Positions 2 through 7,898 of a DNA stretch of 64,000 nt are shown here, piece after piece. The notes under the pieces are model-generated. The model saw nothing but the letters and a program-made list of their open reading frames with translations, made no database searches and was not told the DNA's origin. The stretch spans positions 96,001 through 160,000 of the forward strand of contig JAHQWG010000016.1 of assembly GCA_029856045.1 (NCBI GenBank), written 5' to 3'. This DNA comes from Promethearchaeia archaeon. GTDB taxonomy: Archaea; Asgardarchaeota; Lokiarchaeia; Sigyniarchaeales; SOKP01. The translations under genes were made by a program, and so were the position numbers. How positions within the stretch are numbered: the first letter of the stretch is position 1; each line of letters begins with the position of its first letter.

Positions 2-958
2 TCTCCAGATGAAGTTTTGCCCCTATATGGAGCCGATGCACTAAGACAGTGGGCTGCAATGGGTTCATTAGGTGATGATTACCCGTTTGAATATTCGTGG
101 ATTGAGAAAAATACCAAACAACCTGTTAGTAAAGATAAAATCGAAGATGATAAAAATAAATTACCTGAAGATAAATTCAAGAGAAAATATGAGAGAAGAT
201 ACAATCAATTAATAGGGGCTTCTAAATTTCTAACAAAAATCTGGAATGCATATAGATTTTTATATTTAACTAATGAGAAAATTGATTTAAAAGAGATTGA
301 CATAGATATAAATGAATTATCACCTATTGATAGCTATTTTTATAATAAATTTAATGAAGTTCTTGAATATATAACTAATTCTTTCGAAGGATATAATTGG
401 CATGAAGGATTTGCAGCATTTCGCTCATTTTTTTGGTATGAAATATGTGATGATTACATTGAGGCAATAAAATATAAATTTTATTTAGAAGATGCAGCTA
501 TAAAACAAAATGCATTAAAAGCCGTATTAAATCTGATGTATAAAATACTAAAGATTTTAGCAATAATAAGTCCTTTTATTTCAGAGGATATATATTCAAT
601 TCTCTTTAAAAATTATATAAAACAGAAATCAATCCATCTTGAAAAATGGTCAGTTCCTTATCAAAGAATTCCAGAAAAATTCGCTGAACAAGGAAAATTT
701 TGTTTAGAAATTATTAAAAATATTAGAATGGTTAAATCTTCAAATAAAATTCCATTGAATCAAGAATTAAATAAAGTTATATTAATTTTAGACATTAATA
801 GAGTAAAAATGTTGGAAGCGTTACAAATCGATATAAAAAAAACAATTAGAATTAAAGAATTAATAGTAATTGATAAAGAGACACAGGAATCATTAGATAC
901 ACCCGATATAGAAGAGAATATAGAAGATTTAGGGTTAAATATTTTAATTTTTAAATAA
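2..958 (+). CDS. valS: valyl-tRNA synthetase, C-terminal part (5' end outside window)
   Basis: Frame open from position 2 (SPDEVLPLYGADALRQWAA); class Ia post-KMSKS and anticodon-binding motifs YGADALR, KFLTKIWNA, FFWYEICDDYIE, PFISEDIY, SIHLEKW. Confidence 0.85.
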   Translation, partial: SPDEVLPLYGADALRQWAAMGSLGDDYPFEYSWIEKNTKQPVSKDKIEDDKNKLPEDKFKRKYERRYNQLIGASKFLTKIWNAYRFLYLTNEKIDLKEIDIDINELSPIDSYFYNKFNEVLEYITNSFEGYNWHEGFAAFRSFFWYEICDDYIEAIKYKFYLEDAAIKQNALKAVLNLMYKILKILAIISPFISEDIYSILFKNYIKQKSIHLEKWSVPYQRIPEKFAEQGKFCLEIIKNIRMVKSSNKIPLNQELNKVILILDINRVKMLEALQIDIKKTIRIKELIVIDKETQESLDTPDIEENIEDLGLNILIFK

Positions 959-996: not shown

Positions 997-1878
997 CTAT
1001 AGCTCGCCTTCAAGTTGAGAAATTATTTGCTTTTTCATTTCTTCAACGTTTGTTGAGAAGCCGAAAGTTTCAGCGAATTTTTGGTTCGTAGTTAACTCGT
1101 GAGTTCTTCCTTTTTTAATGGCGTTAATGAATTCATTATCTAATAACCATTTCACATGTTCGTAAGCGCCAGAACCACGTATTTTAATAAGTTTTGATTT
1201 CAGAATTGGTTGTTTTAAGGCAATAATAGTTAATGTTCGCATTATTCTTTGGGGAATAAGGCCACCAGCAGCAAACTTTGCAACTTTTTCAGTATATTCA
1301 GGTTTTATTTGCATACTATATTTATCTCCAATTTGAACGATTTCAATTGCAGTAGTTCTATCCAGAAACTCAAATGCGAGTTCATTGATTATATTTTTTA
1401 TTAAATCTTGCTTAATCTCTAATTTTGAAGAAAGTTCTTCAAGCCCAAGTGGACGACCTGCGACAAATAAAGCGGCTTCAATTTGATTTTTGTGAAAATC
1501 TAAATCAAGTCTTTCTTTTCTTTCTTCATCCGATAATTCTTGAATTTCTGGTTCAACTTTATTAATTTCCATTTCTATTAAGGATTCATCTATTGGTTTA
1601 ACTACTTCCTCTGTAGATTTATCCATTAATTCAACTTCATCTTCTCGTAAAGATTTATCTATTAATTCAATTTCATCTTCTTCTGTTGACTCATCTAATA
1701 ATTCAATTTTATCTTCTTCTAGAGATTCATCTATTAGTTTAACTTCTTCTTCTGTAGATTCATCTTTTAATTCAACTTCATCTTCTTCTAGAGATTCACC
1801 AATAGATTTATTTTCTAAATCTTGCTCTAATTCATTATTTTCATTATTTTCATTATTTTCTTGTTCCATGCACATCAA
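997..1878 (-). CDS. scpB: SMC-Scp complex subunit ScpB with acidic repetitive N-terminal extension
   Basis: IEAALFVAGRPL, RTLTIIALKQPILKSKLIKIRG, TTNQKFAETFG; downstream of smc-scpA. Confidence 0.9.
   Translation of the reverse strand: MMCMEQENNENNENNELEQDLENKSIGESLEEDEVELKDESTEEEVKLIDESLEEDKIELLDESTEEDEIELIDKSLREDEVELMDKSTEEVVKPIDESLIEMEINKVEPEIQELSDEERKERLDLDFHKNQIEAALFVAGRPLGLEELSSKLEIKQDLIKNIINELAFEFLDRTTAIEIVQIGDKYSMQIKPEYTEKVAKFAAGGLIPQRIMRTLTIIALKQPILKSKLIKIRGSGAYEHVKWLLDNEFINAIKKGRTHELTTNQKFAETFGFSTNVEEMKKQIISQLEGEL
1579..1806 (-). repeat. ~6 imperfect 33-36 nt coding repeats (EEDEVELxDES/T-like) in scpB
   Basis: EEDEVELKDEST / EEEVKLIDESL / EEDKIELLDEST / EEDEIELIDKSL / REDEVELMDKST / EEVVKPIDESL; recurring ttcaacttcatcttct on + strand. 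Confidence 0.85.
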
Positions 1879-1910: not shown

Positions 1911-2900
1911 TTATTTAATTGTAATTGAAATATCTTCAAAATCATCTGCTTGAAATATATTTATTTTATTGGAAGTTCCTAAGAACATTAATGAAAGGAA
2001 CATCCTAACAAGAGCAAACTTACGGGAAATTGTTTCCTCTTGTTCATTTTTTATTAAATTTAAAAGTTTAAAAAAGGAGATATAATCAGTGTCATTAAGA
2101 TCTTGGGAAGCTTTAATTTTGTTATACCATCCATCGATCAATTCTTCAATCGTTTGGTCTTTTCCTGTAATATGTTTTAATAATTCTTTGGGTAATTTTG
2201 CTTTTGATTTTTTTAATTCTACCATTTGTTTTGCATCTTCTCTTCGTTCACGTGCGCGTCTTAATTTTTCTCGGTTTTGCATTGTTTCTAAAATAGCAGA
2301 TCTCATTGCAGAAAAGAGTTCTTCCCTAGTAGCGACTTTCTTTTTGGGTTGAATCGGTTGAGCAAATGCTTTTGGGATTGAACGTTTAGTTCGTTCCCTT
2401 AATTCCTCTAATTCTTGTTCCTGCTGTACTTTTTGTTCATGTTCAATGACATCCTTTATTTTTGTATGATGAATAGTTGCCGCACCTAAAATTGCCATTC
2501 CAGAAATTCTAAAATTAATAAAATCTTCTTTAAGCATCTTTTCAAAGAATTTATGAATTATCGGTGTGAAGTCTTGATTTAAAAATGTTGAATCCTTTAA
2601 TAATTCCGGATCCAAAAGTGAATTATATGGAGGTTTTTGCCAGAATTTTTTATCAGCTTCAATTTTTTTTTTCATTTCTTCTGTTATTTCTTTTAATAAT
2701 TCACCATCTTCTTCAAATTCTGCGATTAATTCTTCTTTAACTTCAATTTCCTTTTGGATTTCAGGTAATGGTTTTTCAATTGAATTTATTTGATCAATAT
2801 TTGATTTAGAAATATTTGGTGTTTCATCTTTAGGCTTTTTAGGGCATTTATGTTGAGATAGCCTTTTAAAGGTTTTTCCACAATAAGGGCATTTTGGCAT
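1911..2900 (-). CDS. scpA: kleisin ScpA with N-terminal C2HC zinc-finger-like segment
   Basis: N-kleisin-like INFRISGMAILGAATIHHTKI; C-terminal VRMFLSLMFLGTSNKINIFQADDFEDISI; lies between smc and scpB. Confidence 0.8.
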   Translation of the reverse strand: MPKCPYCGKTFKRLSQHKCPKKPKDETPNISKSNIDQINSIEKPLPEIQKEIEVKEELIAEFEEDGELLKEITEEMKKKIEADKKFWQKPPYNSLLDPELLKDSTFLNQDFTPIIHKFFEKMLKEDFINFRISGMAILGAATIHHTKIKDVIEHEQKVQQEQELEELRERTKRSIPKAFAQPIQPKKKVATREELFSAMRSAILETMQNREKLRRARERREDAKQMVELKKSKAKLPKELLKHITGKDQTIEELIDGWYNKIKASQDLNDTDYISFFKLLNLIKNEQEETISRKFALVRMFLSLMFLGTSNKINIFQADDFEDISITIK

Positions 2901-2922: not shown

Positions 2923-5900
2923 TTAAGTTTCCTCTAATTCCAATATTTGTTTAGCTTCTTTTTCTAAATCCACACTAAAAACATCTGTAATTCCACCTTG
3001 CATTGAAACACCGTATATTCTATCTGCATTTACAATGTTTTCTTCACGGTGACTAATAACTAAAAATTGAGCTTGTTTAGCGAATTCCTTAATAACCATC
3101 GAAACACGATGAACATTTGGGCCGTCTAAGGCCGCATCGATCTCATCTAAAATATAAAATGGAGCAGGATAAAATTCTTGAACGGCAAAGATGAAAGATA
3201 ATGCAACTAGAGTCTTTTCTCCGCCACTTAAAATTTCAAGTGAACTAATTTTTTTACCTCTTGGGCGAGCTTCTATGTCAATTCCTCCTTCAAAAGGTTT
3301 ATCTGGTCGCTCTAATATCATTTTAGCAGAGCCGCCTGGTGATAATTTTTGAAACACACTTGAAAATTGTCTATTAATCTCATGGTAAGCTTTCATGAAA
3401 TTTCTAGTTTTTTCCAATTCAATTTTATCAATAGAGTCAAGAATCGCTTTTCTTTCTCGTTGGATGGTTTGTCTTCTCATATCTATTTCATCAAATCGCT
3501 CTTTAACATCATCATATTGATCAATCGCTTTAAGATTTACTGGTTCAAGTTTCTTCTTAGCATTTTGCGTTTCTATGATATCATTTTGAAGTCCTTGTTC
3601 TGTAAGTTCTTCAGTTACTGGTGGAAGAGCTCCGTAATCTTTACCTCTTTCATAAAGTGTTTCAATCTGATCAGTCGTTATTATTTTTTTAGATTCAAGA
3701 TTATTTAATTTGGAATGTTCCATCGATAGATCCGCTTTTAATGAGGAAATAACATTTTGCATTTCTTTTTGTTTTTTCCAGGATTCATCTTTTTTAATCA
3801 CTATCTCGTCGATTTCTTTTTGTTTTTCTATTTTATCATTATTTACTTCAGTAAGAGTTTCATTAATTTTTTCTATATCTTTTTCAATCTGTTCAATGAG
3901 CTGATTAGAATTCTCAATTTCTTCTACCAAAATTTTAATTTGTTGTTCTCGTTCTTTATTTTTAGATAATTCGTTTAGATCTTTTTGTTGTTTCTGTAAT
4001 TTTTTGTTCATGTCTTTCAAGTATTTTTGAATTTCCTTCTGTTTATTGAATTCCTCATCTTTATGGTTTTTTAATTCATTAATTGTAATTTGTTCTTCAT
4101 CGATTTTCTTTTGAATTTCTTCTTGAGAAAGAGTTTGTTCCTCAATTTTTTTATTATTAGCATCGATTTTATTATTCGAGTCAACATTTTCAGTTTTTAA
4201 TTCTTCAATAGAATCTATGAGTCGCTGAATATTTTGTAGAGCTCTCAAATTATCAGTTATTAATTCTAGATTTTGATTTTCTACATCAATTTGTTTTTGT
4301 AATTCCGCTGTTTTTCCCCAGAATTTTTCTTTCTCTAATTTTAAATCGTTAATTTTGTTCTGATGTGTTTCTAATTCTTTTTTCCTTGTTTCAATGCTTT
4401 TATTTGTTGCAATAATTTCATTATTTTTTTCTTCAATCTCTATTTCAATAGACTTAATATTTTCCTCAATTTCTGTTATGTTTTCCAATAAATTTTGTAT
4501 GCCTTTGAGATCTTGTAAATTCTCTTGAATATTATCAAGTTCCTTCTGATTATTTTCAACCTTATCTTGAATCTCTTTCTTTATTGTCCAAAACTGTTTT
4601 TTCAGCTCTTTAATATTTTCTTGTTCTTTAATTAATTGTTCTTTCTCTTTGTTTTTCTCATCGATAAATTTATTTTTTTCAGTGGTCTCGTTTTCAAATT
4701 CTATAATTTTATTTTTTATTTCTTCCGATTGAGAAGAGAAATCATCTAATTTTCTTTTATCCTCTGATAATTTTTGATCGAATGATTCCTTTTTTGAATT
4801 AAAAACAGTTAGTTTTTGTTCATGATCATTCAATTCATTTAATTGGGAATTAATACTTTCAGAAATTTCTTCTAATTCTTTATAAAGATCTTGACTTTTT
4901 GATAATGTTAATTTTCTTAAAGCAAGATAAACATTTTCTAATATTTCCATTAAATCTTGGACGAAATCGTCAATATTGGAGGTTGATTCTTGGACAGCAA
5001 CGTCTGTAGATTCTTTTACGGATGTAAGTAATTGAGAAATTGAAGAGTCTGCATTTTCAATATATAAATTCAGAGTTTGAGTGAAAGAATTCAATGACCC
5101 ACGAATATTCTCATCAGATAATTCCTCCTTATTAATTTCTTCAATAATTTTCATCATTTCAACAATATCATAGATATAAGTTTTGAAATCTTCAGCAGAT
5201 GTTGAAATTGCTTCAAAATTTGATTCTTGAATTGCGCCTTTTATTGATTCAACAGAAATATGTATATTTTGGGTTAACATATTTAAAATTTGTAAAATTC
5301 CTGTTAAATTTTCTTTATTTTGATCATAATCTTCCTCAGAAACCCTAATTCGGTCTAAAAGAGTTTCTTTTTCCTTACTCAATTCATTTATTCTTTTGTT
5401 AATATTTTCTTTCTTTTTAGAGAGATTATTAAGATTAGAATTTGTTTCATTCAAATCCTCGGTAAGTGACTTTGTTTCTAAGTTAAGGTTTTTGATTTCT
5501 CGCTCAAAATTTTTTTGATTCTTTTGGAGAATTCTTATTTCAGTTTTAATGTTAGAGATTCTGGTATTATATTCAGTAATTTCAGATTCTGATGTATTTT
5601 TTTTCATTTGAATTAATTCATAATTCTGTTCATTCTTTTTTAAAGTATTTTCTTCTTGTAGAAGTTGTTTCTTTAAATCTGCTATATTCTTAATATAACT
5701 ATCTTTCTTTTTCATTAATTCTATTATTCTTACTTGAACTTCTTTTCCCTCACTTAATCTCTTGAATTCTTCTTCGATTTCAATTTTCTTTTTATTGAGT
5801 GTATTGATTTGGTTTTTATTCATTTTTATCTCTGTATTTAAAGATGAAAAAGATGAATGTAAATCAGAGATGATTTTATTAATATCACTTCTCTGGTTCT

Positions 5901-7353
5901 CGATTTCAGTAATTTGCGATTCCAAATCTTTCTGAACTTTATTTTCATTATTAATATTTTTCTTAATTTCTGCTATTTTTTCTCGAATTTGCTGCTGTTT
6001 TTGTTTAGTTTTATCAACGGCTTTTTCAATGTCTTCTTCTTCCCCCTTTAATTTTTCTAGTTCGGTTTCAAGTTCAACTTTTTTATTCTTATTTCGTTTA
6101 ATATTATTTTTCAATACCCCAATTTCAGCTTTGAGTGAAGAAATATTTTGTTTTATTGTAGAGATTTCACCTTTAAAACCTGCAACAATTTTTGTATGTT
6201 CATTAATATCTCCTTCAATTTCTTTATGCTTTGATTGACTAATTTCAAATGAGTTTCTAGAATTTTCTATTTCTTTTTCAATATTTGATATATCTTTCTG
6301 GACATCTTCAATCATATTATCAAATGTTTGACCCTCTTCCAAAACCTTTAGCTCTTTTTCAAGGTTCTCCTTTTTTATTTTTGATTTTTCAAGGGATTGT
6401 TTTTCTATTTCCATCGTTGTTTTATTAGAACTAAGTTCTGTTTTAATCTTAGTGATTTTTTCAGAGATATCTTCTCGTTCCTTTTCTTTCTCACTTATCG
6501 TTTGTTGAAGATTTTCCATAATAAGAGCTTCTTGTTTATAAATATCCTCTTGTCTATCAATTTTTCCTTTAAATTCTTCAATGATTTCTTGGGTCTTTTC
6601 CATATATTTTTCTAATTGTTCCTCTTCCGCTTGTAATTGGGATATTTTTAGAGCAATCAATTGCGAATTATAATAGTTAATTTTTTCATCTAATTCCTTC
6701 CATTTTAACGCATCATTTTTTTCTTTCTCAACTTTTTTCAGTTGAGAAGATACTTCTGAGAAAATTGCTTCAAATTTTCCTAAATCACGTTCTGCTTTAT
6801 CTAATTTTTTAAGAGTAGCATCTCTCATTTCATCATATTTTTCTAAACCTATAAGCGTTTCAATGAATGCGCGTCTATCAACAGAATTCATATGAGTTAA
6901 TTCCACTATTTTTCCTTGTAAAACAAATTGATTTGAGCCATCGGGGTCAATATTTGCTTGTGCTAAAGCATTTAATAATGCTGAGCGGGTTGCATTCTTT
7001 CCATTAATTAAATATTTACTTCCTGTTGTTTTTCTTACTTCTCTTGCTATTTCAAATGTATCTCCACCACCAGGAAATATTCCCTCTGAATTATCAAATG
7101 TAATTGCTACCCTTGAAGTTGAGGCAGGCTTTTCTTTTTGGGTTCCAGCAAAAATTAAATCCTTTAATGATTCAGCTCTCATAGTTTTTTTCGATAAACG
7201 CCCAAGACAAAAACATAATGCATCAATAACATTCGATTTTCCTGCCCCATTAGGTCCTACAATACAAGTAAAACCAGGAGAGAGCTTAATCGAAACCGTT
7301 CTATCTCCAAAGGATTTAAAACCAGTCATACTGATTTTCTTTATAATAGTCAT
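2923..7353 (-). CDS. smc: SMC chromosome segregation ATPase (atypical: long arms, no recognisable hinge)
   Basis: GFKSF, Walker A GPNGAGKS, Q-loop FVLQG, signature LSGGEK, Walker B/D-loop ILDEIDAALD, ISHR; long coiled coils; operon with scpA/scpB. Confidence 0.93.
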   Translation of the reverse strand: MTIIKKISMTGFKSFGDRTVSIKLSPGFTCIVGPNGAGKSNVIDALCFCLGRLSKKTMRAESLKDLIFAGTQKEKPASTSRVAITFDNSEGIFPGGGDTFEIAREVRKTTGSKYLINGKNATRSALLNALAQANIDPDGSNQFVLQGKIVELTHMNSVDRRAFIETLIGLEKYDEMRDATLKKLDKAERDLGKFEAIFSEVSSQLKKVEKEKNDALKWKELDEKINYYNSQLIALKISQLQAEEEQLEKYMEKTQEIIEEFKGKIDRQEDIYKQEALIMENLQQTISEKEKEREDISEKITKIKTELSSNKTTMEIEKQSLEKSKIKKENLEKELKVLEEGQTFDNMIEDVQKDISNIEKEIENSRNSFEISQSKHKEIEGDINEHTKIVAGFKGEISTIKQNISSLKAEIGVLKNNIKRNKNKKVELETELEKLKGEEEDIEKAVDKTKQKQQQIREKIAEIKKNINNENKVQKDLESQITEIENQRSDINKIISDLHSSFSSLNTEIKMNKNQINTLNKKKIEIEEEFKRLSEGKEVQVRIIELMKKKDSYIKNIADLKKQLLQEENTLKKNEQNYELIQMKKNTSESEITEYNTRISNIKTEIRILQKNQKNFEREIKNLNLETKSLTEDLNETNSNLNNLSKKKENINKRINELSKEKETLLDRIRVSEEDYDQNKENLTGILQILNMLTQNIHISVESIKGAIQESNFEAISTSAEDFKTYIYDIVEMMKIIEEINKEELSDENIRGSLNSFTQTLNLYIENADSSISQLLTSVKESTDVAVQESTSNIDDFVQDLMEILENVYLALRKLTLSKSQDLYKELEEISESINSQLNELNDHEQKLTVFNSKKESFDQKLSEDKRKLDDFSSQSEEIKNKIIEFENETTEKNKFIDEKNKEKEQLIKEQENIKELKKQFWTIKKEIQDKVENNQKELDNIQENLQDLKGIQNLLENITEIEENIKSIEIEIEEKNNEIIATNKSIETRKKELETHQNKINDLKLEKEKFWGKTAELQKQIDVENQNLELITDNLRALQNIQRLIDSIEELKTENVDSNNKIDANNKKIEEQTLSQEEIQKKIDEEQITINELKNHKDEEFNKQKEIQKYLKDMNKKLQKQQKDLNELSKNKEREQQIKILVEEIENSNQLIEQIEKDIEKINETLTEVNNDKIEKQKEIDEIVIKKDESWKKQKEMQNVISSLKADLSMEHSKLNNLESKKIITTDQIETLYERGKDYGALPPVTEELTEQGLQNDIIETQNAKKKLEPVNLKAIDQYDDVKERFDEIDMRRQTIQRERKAILDSIDKIELEKTRNFMKAYHEINRQFSSVFQKLSPGGSAKMILERPDKPFEGGIDIEARPRGKKISSLEILSGGEKTLVALSFIFAVQEFYPAPFYILDEIDAALDGPNVHRVSMVIKEFAKQAQFLVISHREENIVNADRIYGVSMQGGITDVFSVDLEKEAKQILELEET

Positions 7354-7472: not shown

Positions 7473-7898
7473 TTATAAAATTTTTTCACATTCAATATTA
7501 ATTTCACGCATTACTTTTGCAAAAGTAGTCCATAACTGTTGAGAAAATTGACTTACTAATATGGTATCTGTTCGTTTTGAATCTAAACATTTTAATTCTT
7601 CTTTATGAGATTTAATTTTTGTTTTCCAAATTTCCGAAAAGATTTCCTGTAGATTTATCTTTACTTTTTTTGCAATTTGTTCATATGTTTCATCGATATC
7701 TGCCTCCTTTTGCAATTTTTGAAGTTGTTCATATCTTCTTTTTTCTTTTGCATGCGTTAAATCTTTGCAATCAATAATAATTTGAAATGGATTTTTTTTT
7801 CCATATTGGCAGCCTCTAATATCACATTCATTACATATATCTTCGAATGAGATTGTAAATTGAGAAAGACCAGTTATAGAATATTTTAGAGTTGCCAT
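7473..7898 (-). CDS. hypothetical protein (Cys cluster CNECxxxxC)
   Basis: 141-aa ORF with ATG start, same strand as and just upstream of smc. Confidence 0.65.
   Translation of the reverse strand: MATLKYSITGLSQFTISFEDICNECDIRGCQYGKKNPFQIIIDCKDLTHAKEKRRYEQLQKLQKEADIDETYEQIAKKVKINLQEIFSEIWKTKIKSHKEELKCLDSKRTDTILVSQFSQQLWTTFAKVMREINIECEKIL

Follow-up and report, generated by a model that had tools for sequence, protein, structure and literature searches.

The window, a stretch of 64,000 nucleotides from the genome of a Lokiarchaeia-type Asgard archaeon, carries on its minus strand a gene for a large Smc-like ATPase (P0001), followed by genes for a putative ScpA-like kleisin and for the kite protein ScpB, with the housekeeping genes for a tRNA-synthetase C-terminus, TGT and Trm5 around them (Table 1). 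The segment 4890-5310, minus strand, corresponds to residues 682-821 of the 1476-aa Smc ORF.

Table 1. Features of the smc-scpA-scpB locus; coordinates are those of the window, residues those of the hinge-less Smc.
Feature	Residues	Coordinates	Strand	Evidence and remarks
Hinge-less Smc gene (P0001)		2923..7353	-	1476-aa ORF
N-terminal ATPase head half (Walker A, Q-loop)	~1-170	6844..7353	-	motifs; family entropy 0.07-0.7
Walker A GPNGAGKS	33-40			read from sequence
Q-loop VLQGK	144-148			read from sequence
Ascending coiled-coil arm	~171-685	5299..6843	-	modelled part 601-742 one continuous helix; variable, entropy 1.0-1.7
Apex repeat unit 1	686-737	5143..5298	-	67% of columns at least 90% conserved; 2.8 hydrophobic columns per heptad
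Variable tip	738-756	5086..5142	-	predicted turn 743-747; 11% of columns conserved; family indels
Apex repeat unit 2	757-808	4930..5085	-	54% of columns at least 90% conserved; 2.6 hydrophobic columns per heptad
Conserved extension of descending helix, LRKLTLSKSQDLYKELEEI	809-835	4849..4929	-	59% of columns at least 90% conserved
Descending coiled-coil arm	~836-1294	3472..4848	-	modelled part 819-919 helical; family-variable
C-terminal ATPase head half (signature, Walker B, D-loop, H-loop) with stop codon	~1295-1476	2923..3471	-	motifs
Signature LSGGEKT	1375-1381			read from sequence
Walker B FYILDEID	1399-1406			read from sequence
D-loop AALD	1407-1410			read from sequence
H-loop VISHR	1432-1436			read from sequence
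Putative kleisin (ScpA-like), 329 aa		1911..2900	-	N-terminal CxxC...HxC zinc-finger-like motif; sub-threshold PF02616
ScpB (kite), 293 aa		997..1878	-	PF04079 7.1e-34; acidic N-terminal extension of ~125 aa

Several lines of evidence support the view that P0001 encodes a genuine Smc accompanied by kleisin and ScpB genes. The whole protein matches SMC_N in Pfam (1.3e-52), and the ATPase motifs, read directly from the sequence, are all intact and divided between the N- and C-terminal halves of an ABC-type head, as in SMC proteins proper. With the NCBIfam models it scores 624.6 bits against TIGR02169, under the equivalog cut-off of 729.4, and 571.3 bits against TIGR02168, just over the cut-off of 567.35; the Rad50 and RecN models reach at most 99 bits as against 624 for the Smc models. 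The best PDB match of the C-terminal head is Pyrococcus Smc 5xei (214 bits), followed by bacterial Smc and then by SMC1-4, with SMC5/6 absent from its 43 matches.

The assignment of the 1911-2900 gene as a putative kleisin draws on sub-threshold matches, namely to PF02616 (E=0.0078 over profile positions 36-231 of 232), to the Rad21_Rec8 C-terminus (E=0.035) and, with the kleisin family profile A2, to six PDB entries (E 0.02-0.28), all six of which are kleisin C-terminal winged helices (ScpA 5xns_C, 4i99_C, 5h66_C and 5xg3_C; Scc1 6qpw_B and 1w1w_E). ScpB also passes TIGR00281 (103.8 bits, cut-off 89.2); a 36-nt repeat in ~6 copies lies inside its gene at 1583-1798. Judged by these matches and by the conserved gene order, the kleisin and kite partners of an SMC proper appear to be present at the gene level: among the related loci scpA is found downstream in 51 of 81 and scpB in 50 of 81, many of the others ending earlier, and nearly all such loci have the pair directly after smc, the gap being ~2-3.5 kb in four. 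A sister-family genome made up of a single contig shows this gene order too. No further conserved operon gene was found in the loci examined, where only scpA and scpB recur. Queries with PF02616 and P0002 found no second kleisin in the genome; the extra matches were to the N-terminal zinc-finger motif only. The original prediction had claimed intact head motifs followed by scpA and scpB, and this is borne out from Walker A to the H-loop and for ScpB (PF04079, 7e-34), with the kleisin matches lying below threshold.

The protein lacks the central alpha/beta hinge of SMC proteins proper. PF06470 (SMC_hinge) is not matched at E ≤ 1 anywhere in it, nor at E ≤ 10 in residues 640-900 of it and of two homologues; Pfam likewise gives no hinge in five family representatives or in the homologue from genome G210. 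As a positive control, the same model detects the hinge of a second Smc of the genome studied here with 116 bits. There are only three glycines in residues 600-920, and the AlphaFold2 model described below is all-helical. Because cysteines are confined to positions 30, 47 and 49, all in the N-terminal head half, there is no CXXC zinc hook of the Rad50/SbcC type at the apex either. The MukB family is absent among the listed Pfam and NCBIfam matches, and the protein, whose partners are of the ScpA/ScpB type and not MukE/MukF, does not classify as a MukB. Apex matches to Apolipoprotein, Spectrin, HAUS1 and similar Pfam families at E ≤ 10 were set aside as helical noise, and at that threshold the apex has no match to Pfam MCP. 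The earlier claims that the apex has neither an SMC hinge nor a Rad50 hook thus hold, as does the expectation that a PF06470 scan of it would be negative.

What stands in place of the hinge is, as the evidence supports, a conserved helical apex composed of two homologous halves. A helical block of ~140 aa with two similar halves had been proposed; compared as single sequences, the halves quoted (starts 699 and 770) give z 6.3 over shuffles, yet their score lies within the top 8% of arm-arm scores. As the single-sequence likeness is no better than that among arm segments, the duplication was established by a profile-level test, in which residues 686-737 and 757-808 align without gaps (hhalign probability 95.6%, score 45.2), as against a mean of 17.9 (sd 3.8, maximum 28.5) in 80 control comparisons of arm with arm profiles. 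On this profile evidence the two halves are a real internal duplication, and the proposal survives. In the alignment of 103 full-length homologues, which is almost without gaps, the family entropy of both halves is head-like at 0.3-0.6, versus 1.0-1.8 in the arms. The apex further differs from the arms in its hydrophobic columns per heptad (2.6-2.8 versus 1.7) and lysine content (5% versus 17%), has a net charge of -18 over 151 residues, and shows at least 90% conservation of a polar residue in one third of its columns. The centre of each repeat is acidic and polar, unlike a classic hydrophobic bundle core.

An AlphaFold2 model of residues 600-920, computed from the 103-sequence alignment, contains only helices and a single turn at 743-747, and forms a helical hairpin with a mean pLDDT of 83. 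Values exceed 90 in the arms, including residues 601-670 of the ascending helix, which falls to 74-83 from ~671, as against ~59-78 in the apex of this monomer model; the lower apex values would be compatible with a missing partner and also with plain uncertainty. A kink is predicted at 817-818, within the extension of the descending helix. Foldseek comparison of the apex model with the PDB recovered antiparallel coiled coils only (Smc arms 5xg2 and 5nnv, the MukB elbow, dynein stalks and the chemoreceptor 2ch7) and no specific fold, and the clusters retrieved by an ESM Atlas feature search with residues 670-845 were either unnamed fragments or, where they had a name, at chance level. The hairpin and the matches to Smc arm fragments point to the long antiparallel intramolecular coiled coil typical of SMC proteins proper. 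Its arms are balanced on either side of the turn (~572 and ~547 residues) and are ~1.6x the normal length, those of canonical Smc being ~340 residues.

The genome has three Smc genes, and the notion that the hinge-less one is its only condensin-type Smc therefore fails. The second, on contig C25, encodes a canonical Smc of 1195 aa (TIGR02169 835 bits, cut-off 729) with its own ScpB-like gene directly downstream; no kleisin gene was recognised beside it. The third, on contig C41, is divergent, with a weak hinge and a head that scores 42 bits to Pyrococcus Smc. As a canonical Smc is also present, the hinge-less protein is an added paralogue in this genome. The two share the canonical lineage (the C25 protein has 208 bits to 5xei) and fall in the same 31-row tree group, but the C25 protein differs in having a strong hinge, passing TIGR02169 and lacking a recognised adjoining kleisin. 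For most genera of this family no Smc of the C25 type was found, in contrast to the hinge-less form. Of 81 sampled genomes of the order, 71 yielded a hinge-less Smc, among them 35 of the 38 high-quality ones, and in 53 of the 81 it occurs without a strong-hinge canonical Smc. Closed genomes of the sister family apparently carry both.

Phylogenetic trees were built with FastTree and, on 42 rows, with IQ-TREE (LG+G4), named SMC5/6 sequences being left out. In both, the hinge-less proteins form a monophyletic clade (support 100, stem ~0.5) nested within hinge-bearing Asgard Smc; a sister-group relationship to Smc labelled as Heimdall/Hodarchaeales has only 84% support. The deepest member of the clade, labelled Sigynarchaeota, has 1296 aa and shorter arms, and its apex is homologous to that of the hinge-less Smc (hhalign 99%, E 2e-18). 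In a 1041-aa frame of G210 that weakly matches the apex profile, Pfam recognises nothing and hence no ATPase head; the match was put down to similarity between coiled coils. Affinity to SMC5/SMC6, as in the SMC5/6-related archaeal SMC (Yoshinaga and Inagaki 2021, PMC8665677), was rejected in view of the PDB matches of the head and the nesting among hinge-bearing Smc of canonical length.

The above observations make it fairly probable that P0001 encodes the ATPase of a second Smc-kleisin-ScpB complex of the condensin type, in which a helical tip replaces the hinge and pairs with a second tip. Such a protein would have descended from canonical archaeal Smc by replacement of the hinge with a tandemly duplicated helical unit of ~71 residues in the ancestor of the order and its Sigynarchaeota-labelled relatives, the arms being much lengthened in this order. 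Within the antiparallel arm each strand would carry one repeat unit, and the two units would pack together just below the variable turn. Heads, neck and cap would function as in Smc-ScpAB, with ATP driving head engagement and with a kleisin that carries ScpB and links one Smc at its neck to the other at its cap. The acidic, hydrophobic-rich and conserved tip would take over the architectural role of the hinge; its conservation and hydrophobic pattern suggest that two tips most probably pair, presumably in a four-helix bundle, which would make the complex a rod or ring of great length. The best reading of the tip is a helical dimerisation or partner-binding module of an Smc-ScpAB-type complex. 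Of the predicted condensin variant with a novel helical dimerisation apex, the Smc, kleisin, ScpB and loss of the hinge stand, and dimerisation is the part that conservation and the hydrophobic pattern suggest. Given the canonical hinge-bearing Smc alongside, the hinge-less complex probably has a partly distinct task.

The features of the apex also bear on an alternative which we consider unlikely, though not negligibly so, namely that the tip serves to dock another factor, such as a basic chromatin protein or a loader or anchor, and that the complex is an open-armed Smc held only by its ATP-engaged heads and kleisin, in line with the open arms that the original prediction offered as its other option. 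The strong acidity and lysine-poverty of the apex would suit this role, as would its conserved polar columns, of the kind that a surface for specific recognition should have; but its excess of hydrophobic columns implies burial beyond that of a two-helix coil, for which self-association is the simplest explanation, and in the loci examined only scpA and scpB recur beside smc. Further, to our knowledge every characterised SMC-family protein (Smc, MukB, Rad50, RecN) has its arms connected at their distal ends. It is much less likely again that the hinge-less Smc heterodimerises through its heads with a hinge-bearing Smc, or shares its kleisin, as a regulatory or asymmetric subunit. Eukaryotic SMCs are heterodimers, this genome has three Smc genes and its sole recognisable kleisin gene adjoins the hinge-less one; however, the 53 genomes without a strong-hinge Smc indicate that the protein is independent of a canonical partner, its arms of ~560 residues are too long to stay in register with those of ~340, and the head of the third Smc is very divergent. 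That the gene is a decaying or non-functional paralogue with a deleted hinge, as the canonical Smc in the same genome might suggest, is effectively refuted by the pattern of conservation and hardly credible: the reading frame is intact, the C-terminal heads are ~89% identical across the family (tblastn), the alignment of the 103 homologues has almost no gaps, conservation of the apex equals that of the heads, and in the order the gene is kept in 71 of 81 genomes, the canonical copy being the one usually missing.

A bolder proposal can also be made, which we advance tentatively as somewhat less than probable. The whole order, closed single-contig genomes apparently included, may organise its chromosomes with a hinge-free SMC motor; the duplicated acidic tip would close the SMC in a new way, as a four-helix zipper or as a clasp gated by a partner, and in genomes like this one hinge-bearing and hinge-less complexes would divide the work. 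Such a division would mean that the core SMC motor activity needs no hinge, and would allow the contribution of the hinge to be studied in a natural system. The hinge is treated as a defining and near-universal part of SMC proteins, and roles in dimerisation, DNA binding and DNA entry have been attributed to it. Here a hinge-less form is widespread, and strongly conserved, among the prokaryotes most closely related to eukaryotes; with its long arms and normal kleisin and kite partners it therefore provides a natural test of hinge-dependent functions and of arm length. Where both forms occur in one organism, the loading sites, loop size and partners specific to each paralogue can be compared. 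No description of this Asgard family was found in the literature searched. The searched text of two published accounts describes duplication of SMC complexes in Asgard archaea before eukaryogenesis and makes no mention of hinge loss (10.1101/2024.01.07.573240; PMC8665677); to these accounts the present findings add detail.

Among the closest known systems is canonical Smc-ScpAB (5xei, 5xns, 4i99; B. subtilis 3zgx), with which the hinge-less Smc shares its head (142 bits to 3zgx, besides the match to 5xei), all ATPase motifs, antiparallel coiled-coil arms and adjoining kleisin and ScpB genes. It departs from this system in the lack of PF06470, the longer arms, the duplicated acidic helical tip and a score below the TIGR02169 cut-off. 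Rad50/SbcC, with its zinc hook, and RecN, with a coiled-coil tip dimer, are SMC-superfamily ATPases that connect their arms distally by other means than an SMC hinge. Their likeness to the hinge-less Smc is a functional analogy only, as the latter has no CXXC and is partnered by kleisin and kite rather than Mre11. The hairpins of MCPs pair into four-helix bundles, the geometry proposed here for the tip; the chemoreceptor hairpin 2ch7 shares with the apex a long antiparallel helical hairpin (TM ~0.5 in Foldseek), an analogy of shape without sequence relationship. SMC homologues with an antiparallel coiled coil and neither hinge domain nor CXXC hook have been described from marine Actinobacteria metagenomes, where they were not found alongside regular SMC (PMC12153180). 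These belong to another domain of life, and the paper gives no sign of a conserved duplicated tip, extended arms or co-occurrence with canonical Smc; we infer that the hinge was lost independently in the actinobacterial and Asgard lineages.

The 1476-aa ORF of this locus encodes a real and conserved Smc paralogue that is long-armed, lacks a hinge and is accompanied by ScpA and ScpB. Pfam recovers SMC_N in it (1.3e-52) and its top NCBIfam models are two prokaryotic Smc equivalogs, with a TIGR02169 score of 624.6 bits that lies below the cut-off of 729.4. The original prediction had described all head motifs as intact, and we located the six ATPase motifs in this ORF: Walker A (residues 33-40), Q-loop (144-148), signature (1375-1381), Walker B (1399-1406), D-loop (1407-1410) and H-loop (1432-1436). 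The neck and cap regions are likewise conserved and the SMC ATPase is intact.

At the far end of the hairpin, as predicted, no SMC_hinge domain is detectable with Pfam: the whole protein matches no hinge family at E<=1, and residues 640-900, scanned here and in two homologues, give no SMC_hinge match at E<=10, only helical noise. The proposed lack of a Rad50-type CXXC hook also stands, since the only cysteines are residues 30, 47 and 49 and the protein is thus without a zinc hook. Three glycines occur in residues 600-920, and AlphaFold2, run on this segment with a 103-sequence family alignment, models it as a hairpin of helices only: a helix at 601-742, a turn at 743-747, a helix at 748-816 and, after a kink, another at 819-919 (mean pLDDT 83; arm parts above 90, apex about 59-78). 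A Foldseek comparison of the apex model with the PDB retrieved antiparallel coiled coils only. The arm strands on either side of the turn measure ~572 and ~547 residues, in contrast to ~340 in canonical Smc.

These 103 homologues, all full-length, align nearly without gaps. Both halves of the apex (691-720 and 781-840) are as conserved as the heads, with an entropy of 0.3-0.6 as against 1.0-1.8 in the arms, and the tip loop between them is variable and has indels. The two similar halves noticed originally prove to be a clear duplication at the profile level. As single sequences they score z 6.3 over shuffles but reach only the top 8% of arm-arm comparisons; as profiles, residues 686-737 and 757-808 align without gaps (hhalign probability 95.6%, score 45.2). 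Because this score is above the maximum of eighty arm-versus-arm controls (28.5; mean 17.9, sd 3.8), the apex is a tandem duplication whose period is ~71 residues. With one copy on each strand of the predicted hairpin, the copies lie antiparallel and face to face just below the turn.

Columns conserved in at least 90% of the sequences make up 54-67% of the repeat units as against 30-34% of the arms, placing the helical tip under strong purifying selection. Further, hydrophobic columns number 2.6-2.8 per heptad in the units and 1.7 in the arms, exceeding the needs of a two-stranded coil. We propose that the tip takes the place of the hinge as the far-end junction, which in its simplest form would be two hairpins paired into a four-helix bundle. 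The apex is acidic (net charge -18 over 151 residues) and lysine-poor (5%, as against 17% in the arms), which argues against hinge-like DNA binding. Such a surface leaves room for the main alternative, namely that the tip docks another, basic factor. Pairing of tips is a putative role.

Features of the smc locus and of the other Smc loci of this genome (C25 and C41 are further contigs, L014 and L015 excerpts of them)
Feature	Position	Strand	Remarks
ScpB gene	997-1878	-	293 aa, co-directional, downstream of kleisin gene
36-nt tandem repeat	1583-1798		encodes acidic units of ScpB
Kleisin (ScpA-like) gene	1911-2900	-	329 aa, co-directional, downstream of smc
Zinc-finger-like motif	2850-2900	-	N-terminus of the kleisin
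Hinge-less Smc ORF	2923-7353	-	1476 aa; encloses the originally noted 4890-5310
ORF directly upstream of smc	7473-7898	-	141 aa
Canonical Smc and ScpB-like locus	C25:28600-32770 (L014:6600-10770)	-	Smc 1195 aa
Divergent Smc	C41:117092-120523 (L015:9092-12523)	+	1143 aa, at contig end

Both genes downstream of smc are the predicted partners. ScpB is identified by PF04079 (7e-34) and by TIGR00281, whose cut-off it exceeds; the kleisin by ScpA and Rad21/Rec8 C-terminal Pfam matches, both sub-threshold, and by a profile of 23 orthologues with six matching PDB chains at E<=1, each of them the C-terminal winged helix of a kleisin (ScpA 5xns_C, 4i99_C, 5h66_C and 5xg3_C; Scc1 6qpw_B and 1w1w_E). The kleisin begins with a C2HC zinc-finger-like motif (CPYCGKTFKRLSQHKC), and most orthologues begin instead with a motif of consensus WTVKxLREFAxxNNIKIPxKSKKxDIIxLL, which we would label SAP/HeH-like by our own judgement; a small, probably DNA-binding N-terminal module seems to have been exchanged. 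ScpB carries an N-terminal extension of ~125 aa in which an acidic 12-aa unit of the type DES-L/T-EE-D/E-x-V/I-EL recurs about six times, and as orthologous ORFs span 194 to 346 aa this tail seems to vary in length. The neighborhood otherwise contains housekeeping genes (a tRNA-synthetase C-terminus, archaeosine TGT and Trm5/TYW2). The small upstream ORF matches only a CEP19-like Pfam family, weakly and below cut-off (E 6e-4).

A search with the apex recovered 168 proteins, nearly all of 1470-1487 aa, with 45-79% apex identity and none with a precomputed PF06470 match; the named ones bear labels such as Lokiarchaeota and Promethearchaeota. In a phylum-level sample of 301 genomes, the apex profile is present in 60 of 68 from this family, in all 7 from the second family of the order, and in only 2 of ~225 elsewhere, one a fragmentary assembly. 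Within the order, 71 of the 81 sampled genomes (35 of 38 high-quality ones) encode the hinge-less Smc. The kleisin gene lies downstream in 51/81 related loci and scpB in 50/81, nearly always immediately after smc, and many loci lacking them end before that point. The single-contig 4.36-Mb genome G210, from the second family, has this arrangement too, with its hinge-less Smc (1487 aa) followed by a 366-aa gene and ScpB.

We used the C-terminal 327 residues as query in an exhaustive HMMER search, which returned 10 representatives at >=361 bits and then dropped to ordinary hinge-bearing Smc proteins of about 1170-1200 aa at <=226 bits. Pfam finds no hinge in the five representatives scanned and finds one in the next two matches; an iterated hinge search likewise detected none in any full-length representative. 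In trees of head sequences (FastTree, 90 sequences; IQ-TREE with LG+G4, 42) the hinge-less proteins are monophyletic, with support of 100 and a stem of about 0.5, and fall inside a hinge-bearing Smc group (98% in IQ-TREE, 89% in FastTree). Their sister clade, weakly supported (84), has Heimdall/Hodarchaeales Smc as its named sequences. Given this nested monophyly, hinge loss is, on the sequence evidence, derived and a single event in this lineage. The deepest member, labelled Sigynarchaeota, has a homologous apex (hhalign 99%, E 2e-18) and only 1296 aa, which suggests to us that the arms lengthened after the hinge was lost. Two other proteins may represent further independent hinge-divergent lineages: P0171 (1162 aa; cluster members labelled Freyarchaeota/Freyrarchaeum), a canonical-length Asgard Smc from the same search with a marginal hinge (PF06470 E 0.061) and a match to a CT398-like coiled-coil hairpin, and P0250 (1260 aa), without detectable hinge.

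This genome (3.34 Mb, estimated 100% complete) has two further Smc genes. The second canonical smc whose existence had been raised originally is indeed present on contig C25, with a strong hinge (116 bits) and a TIGR02169 score of 835 bits that passes the cut-off; its head and that of the hinge-less Smc are equally close to Pyrococcus Smc (208 and 214 bits). A 197-aa ScpB-like gene (PF04079 2.6e-15) overlaps its end, no kleisin is recognisable nearby, and a 764-aa gene upstream matches nothing in Pfam or NCBIfam. The only kleisin-like gene recognised in the genome adjoins the hinge-less Smc. The Smc on contig C41 has a weak hinge (23.5 bits in the genome search, 18.8 in the protein scan) and a head scoring only 42 bits to Pyrococcus Smc; it may be the SMC5/6-related archaeal type. 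It is preceded by an Eco57I/TaqI-type methylase and by a 438-aa protein that matches nothing in Pfam and has one weak NCBIfam hit, CdvC (20 bits, cut-off 650). Most genomes of the family have this weak-hinge type as their sole hinge match. Across the 81 genomes of the order the strong-hinge Smc occurs in 21 and the hinge-less form stands without it in 53, making the latter the better-retained copy; this genome is among the minority of 18 keeping both, which include all four of its genus and three single-contig genomes.

In the literature searched, the coverage of which was incomplete, we came upon no account of this hinge-less Smc of Asgard archaea, so that a prior description elsewhere is possible. 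Two or three SMC-kleisin-kite sets have been published for TACK and Asgard archaea (10.1101/2024.01.07.573240; PMC8665677), and hinge-less SMC homologues for marine Actinobacteria (PMC12153180).
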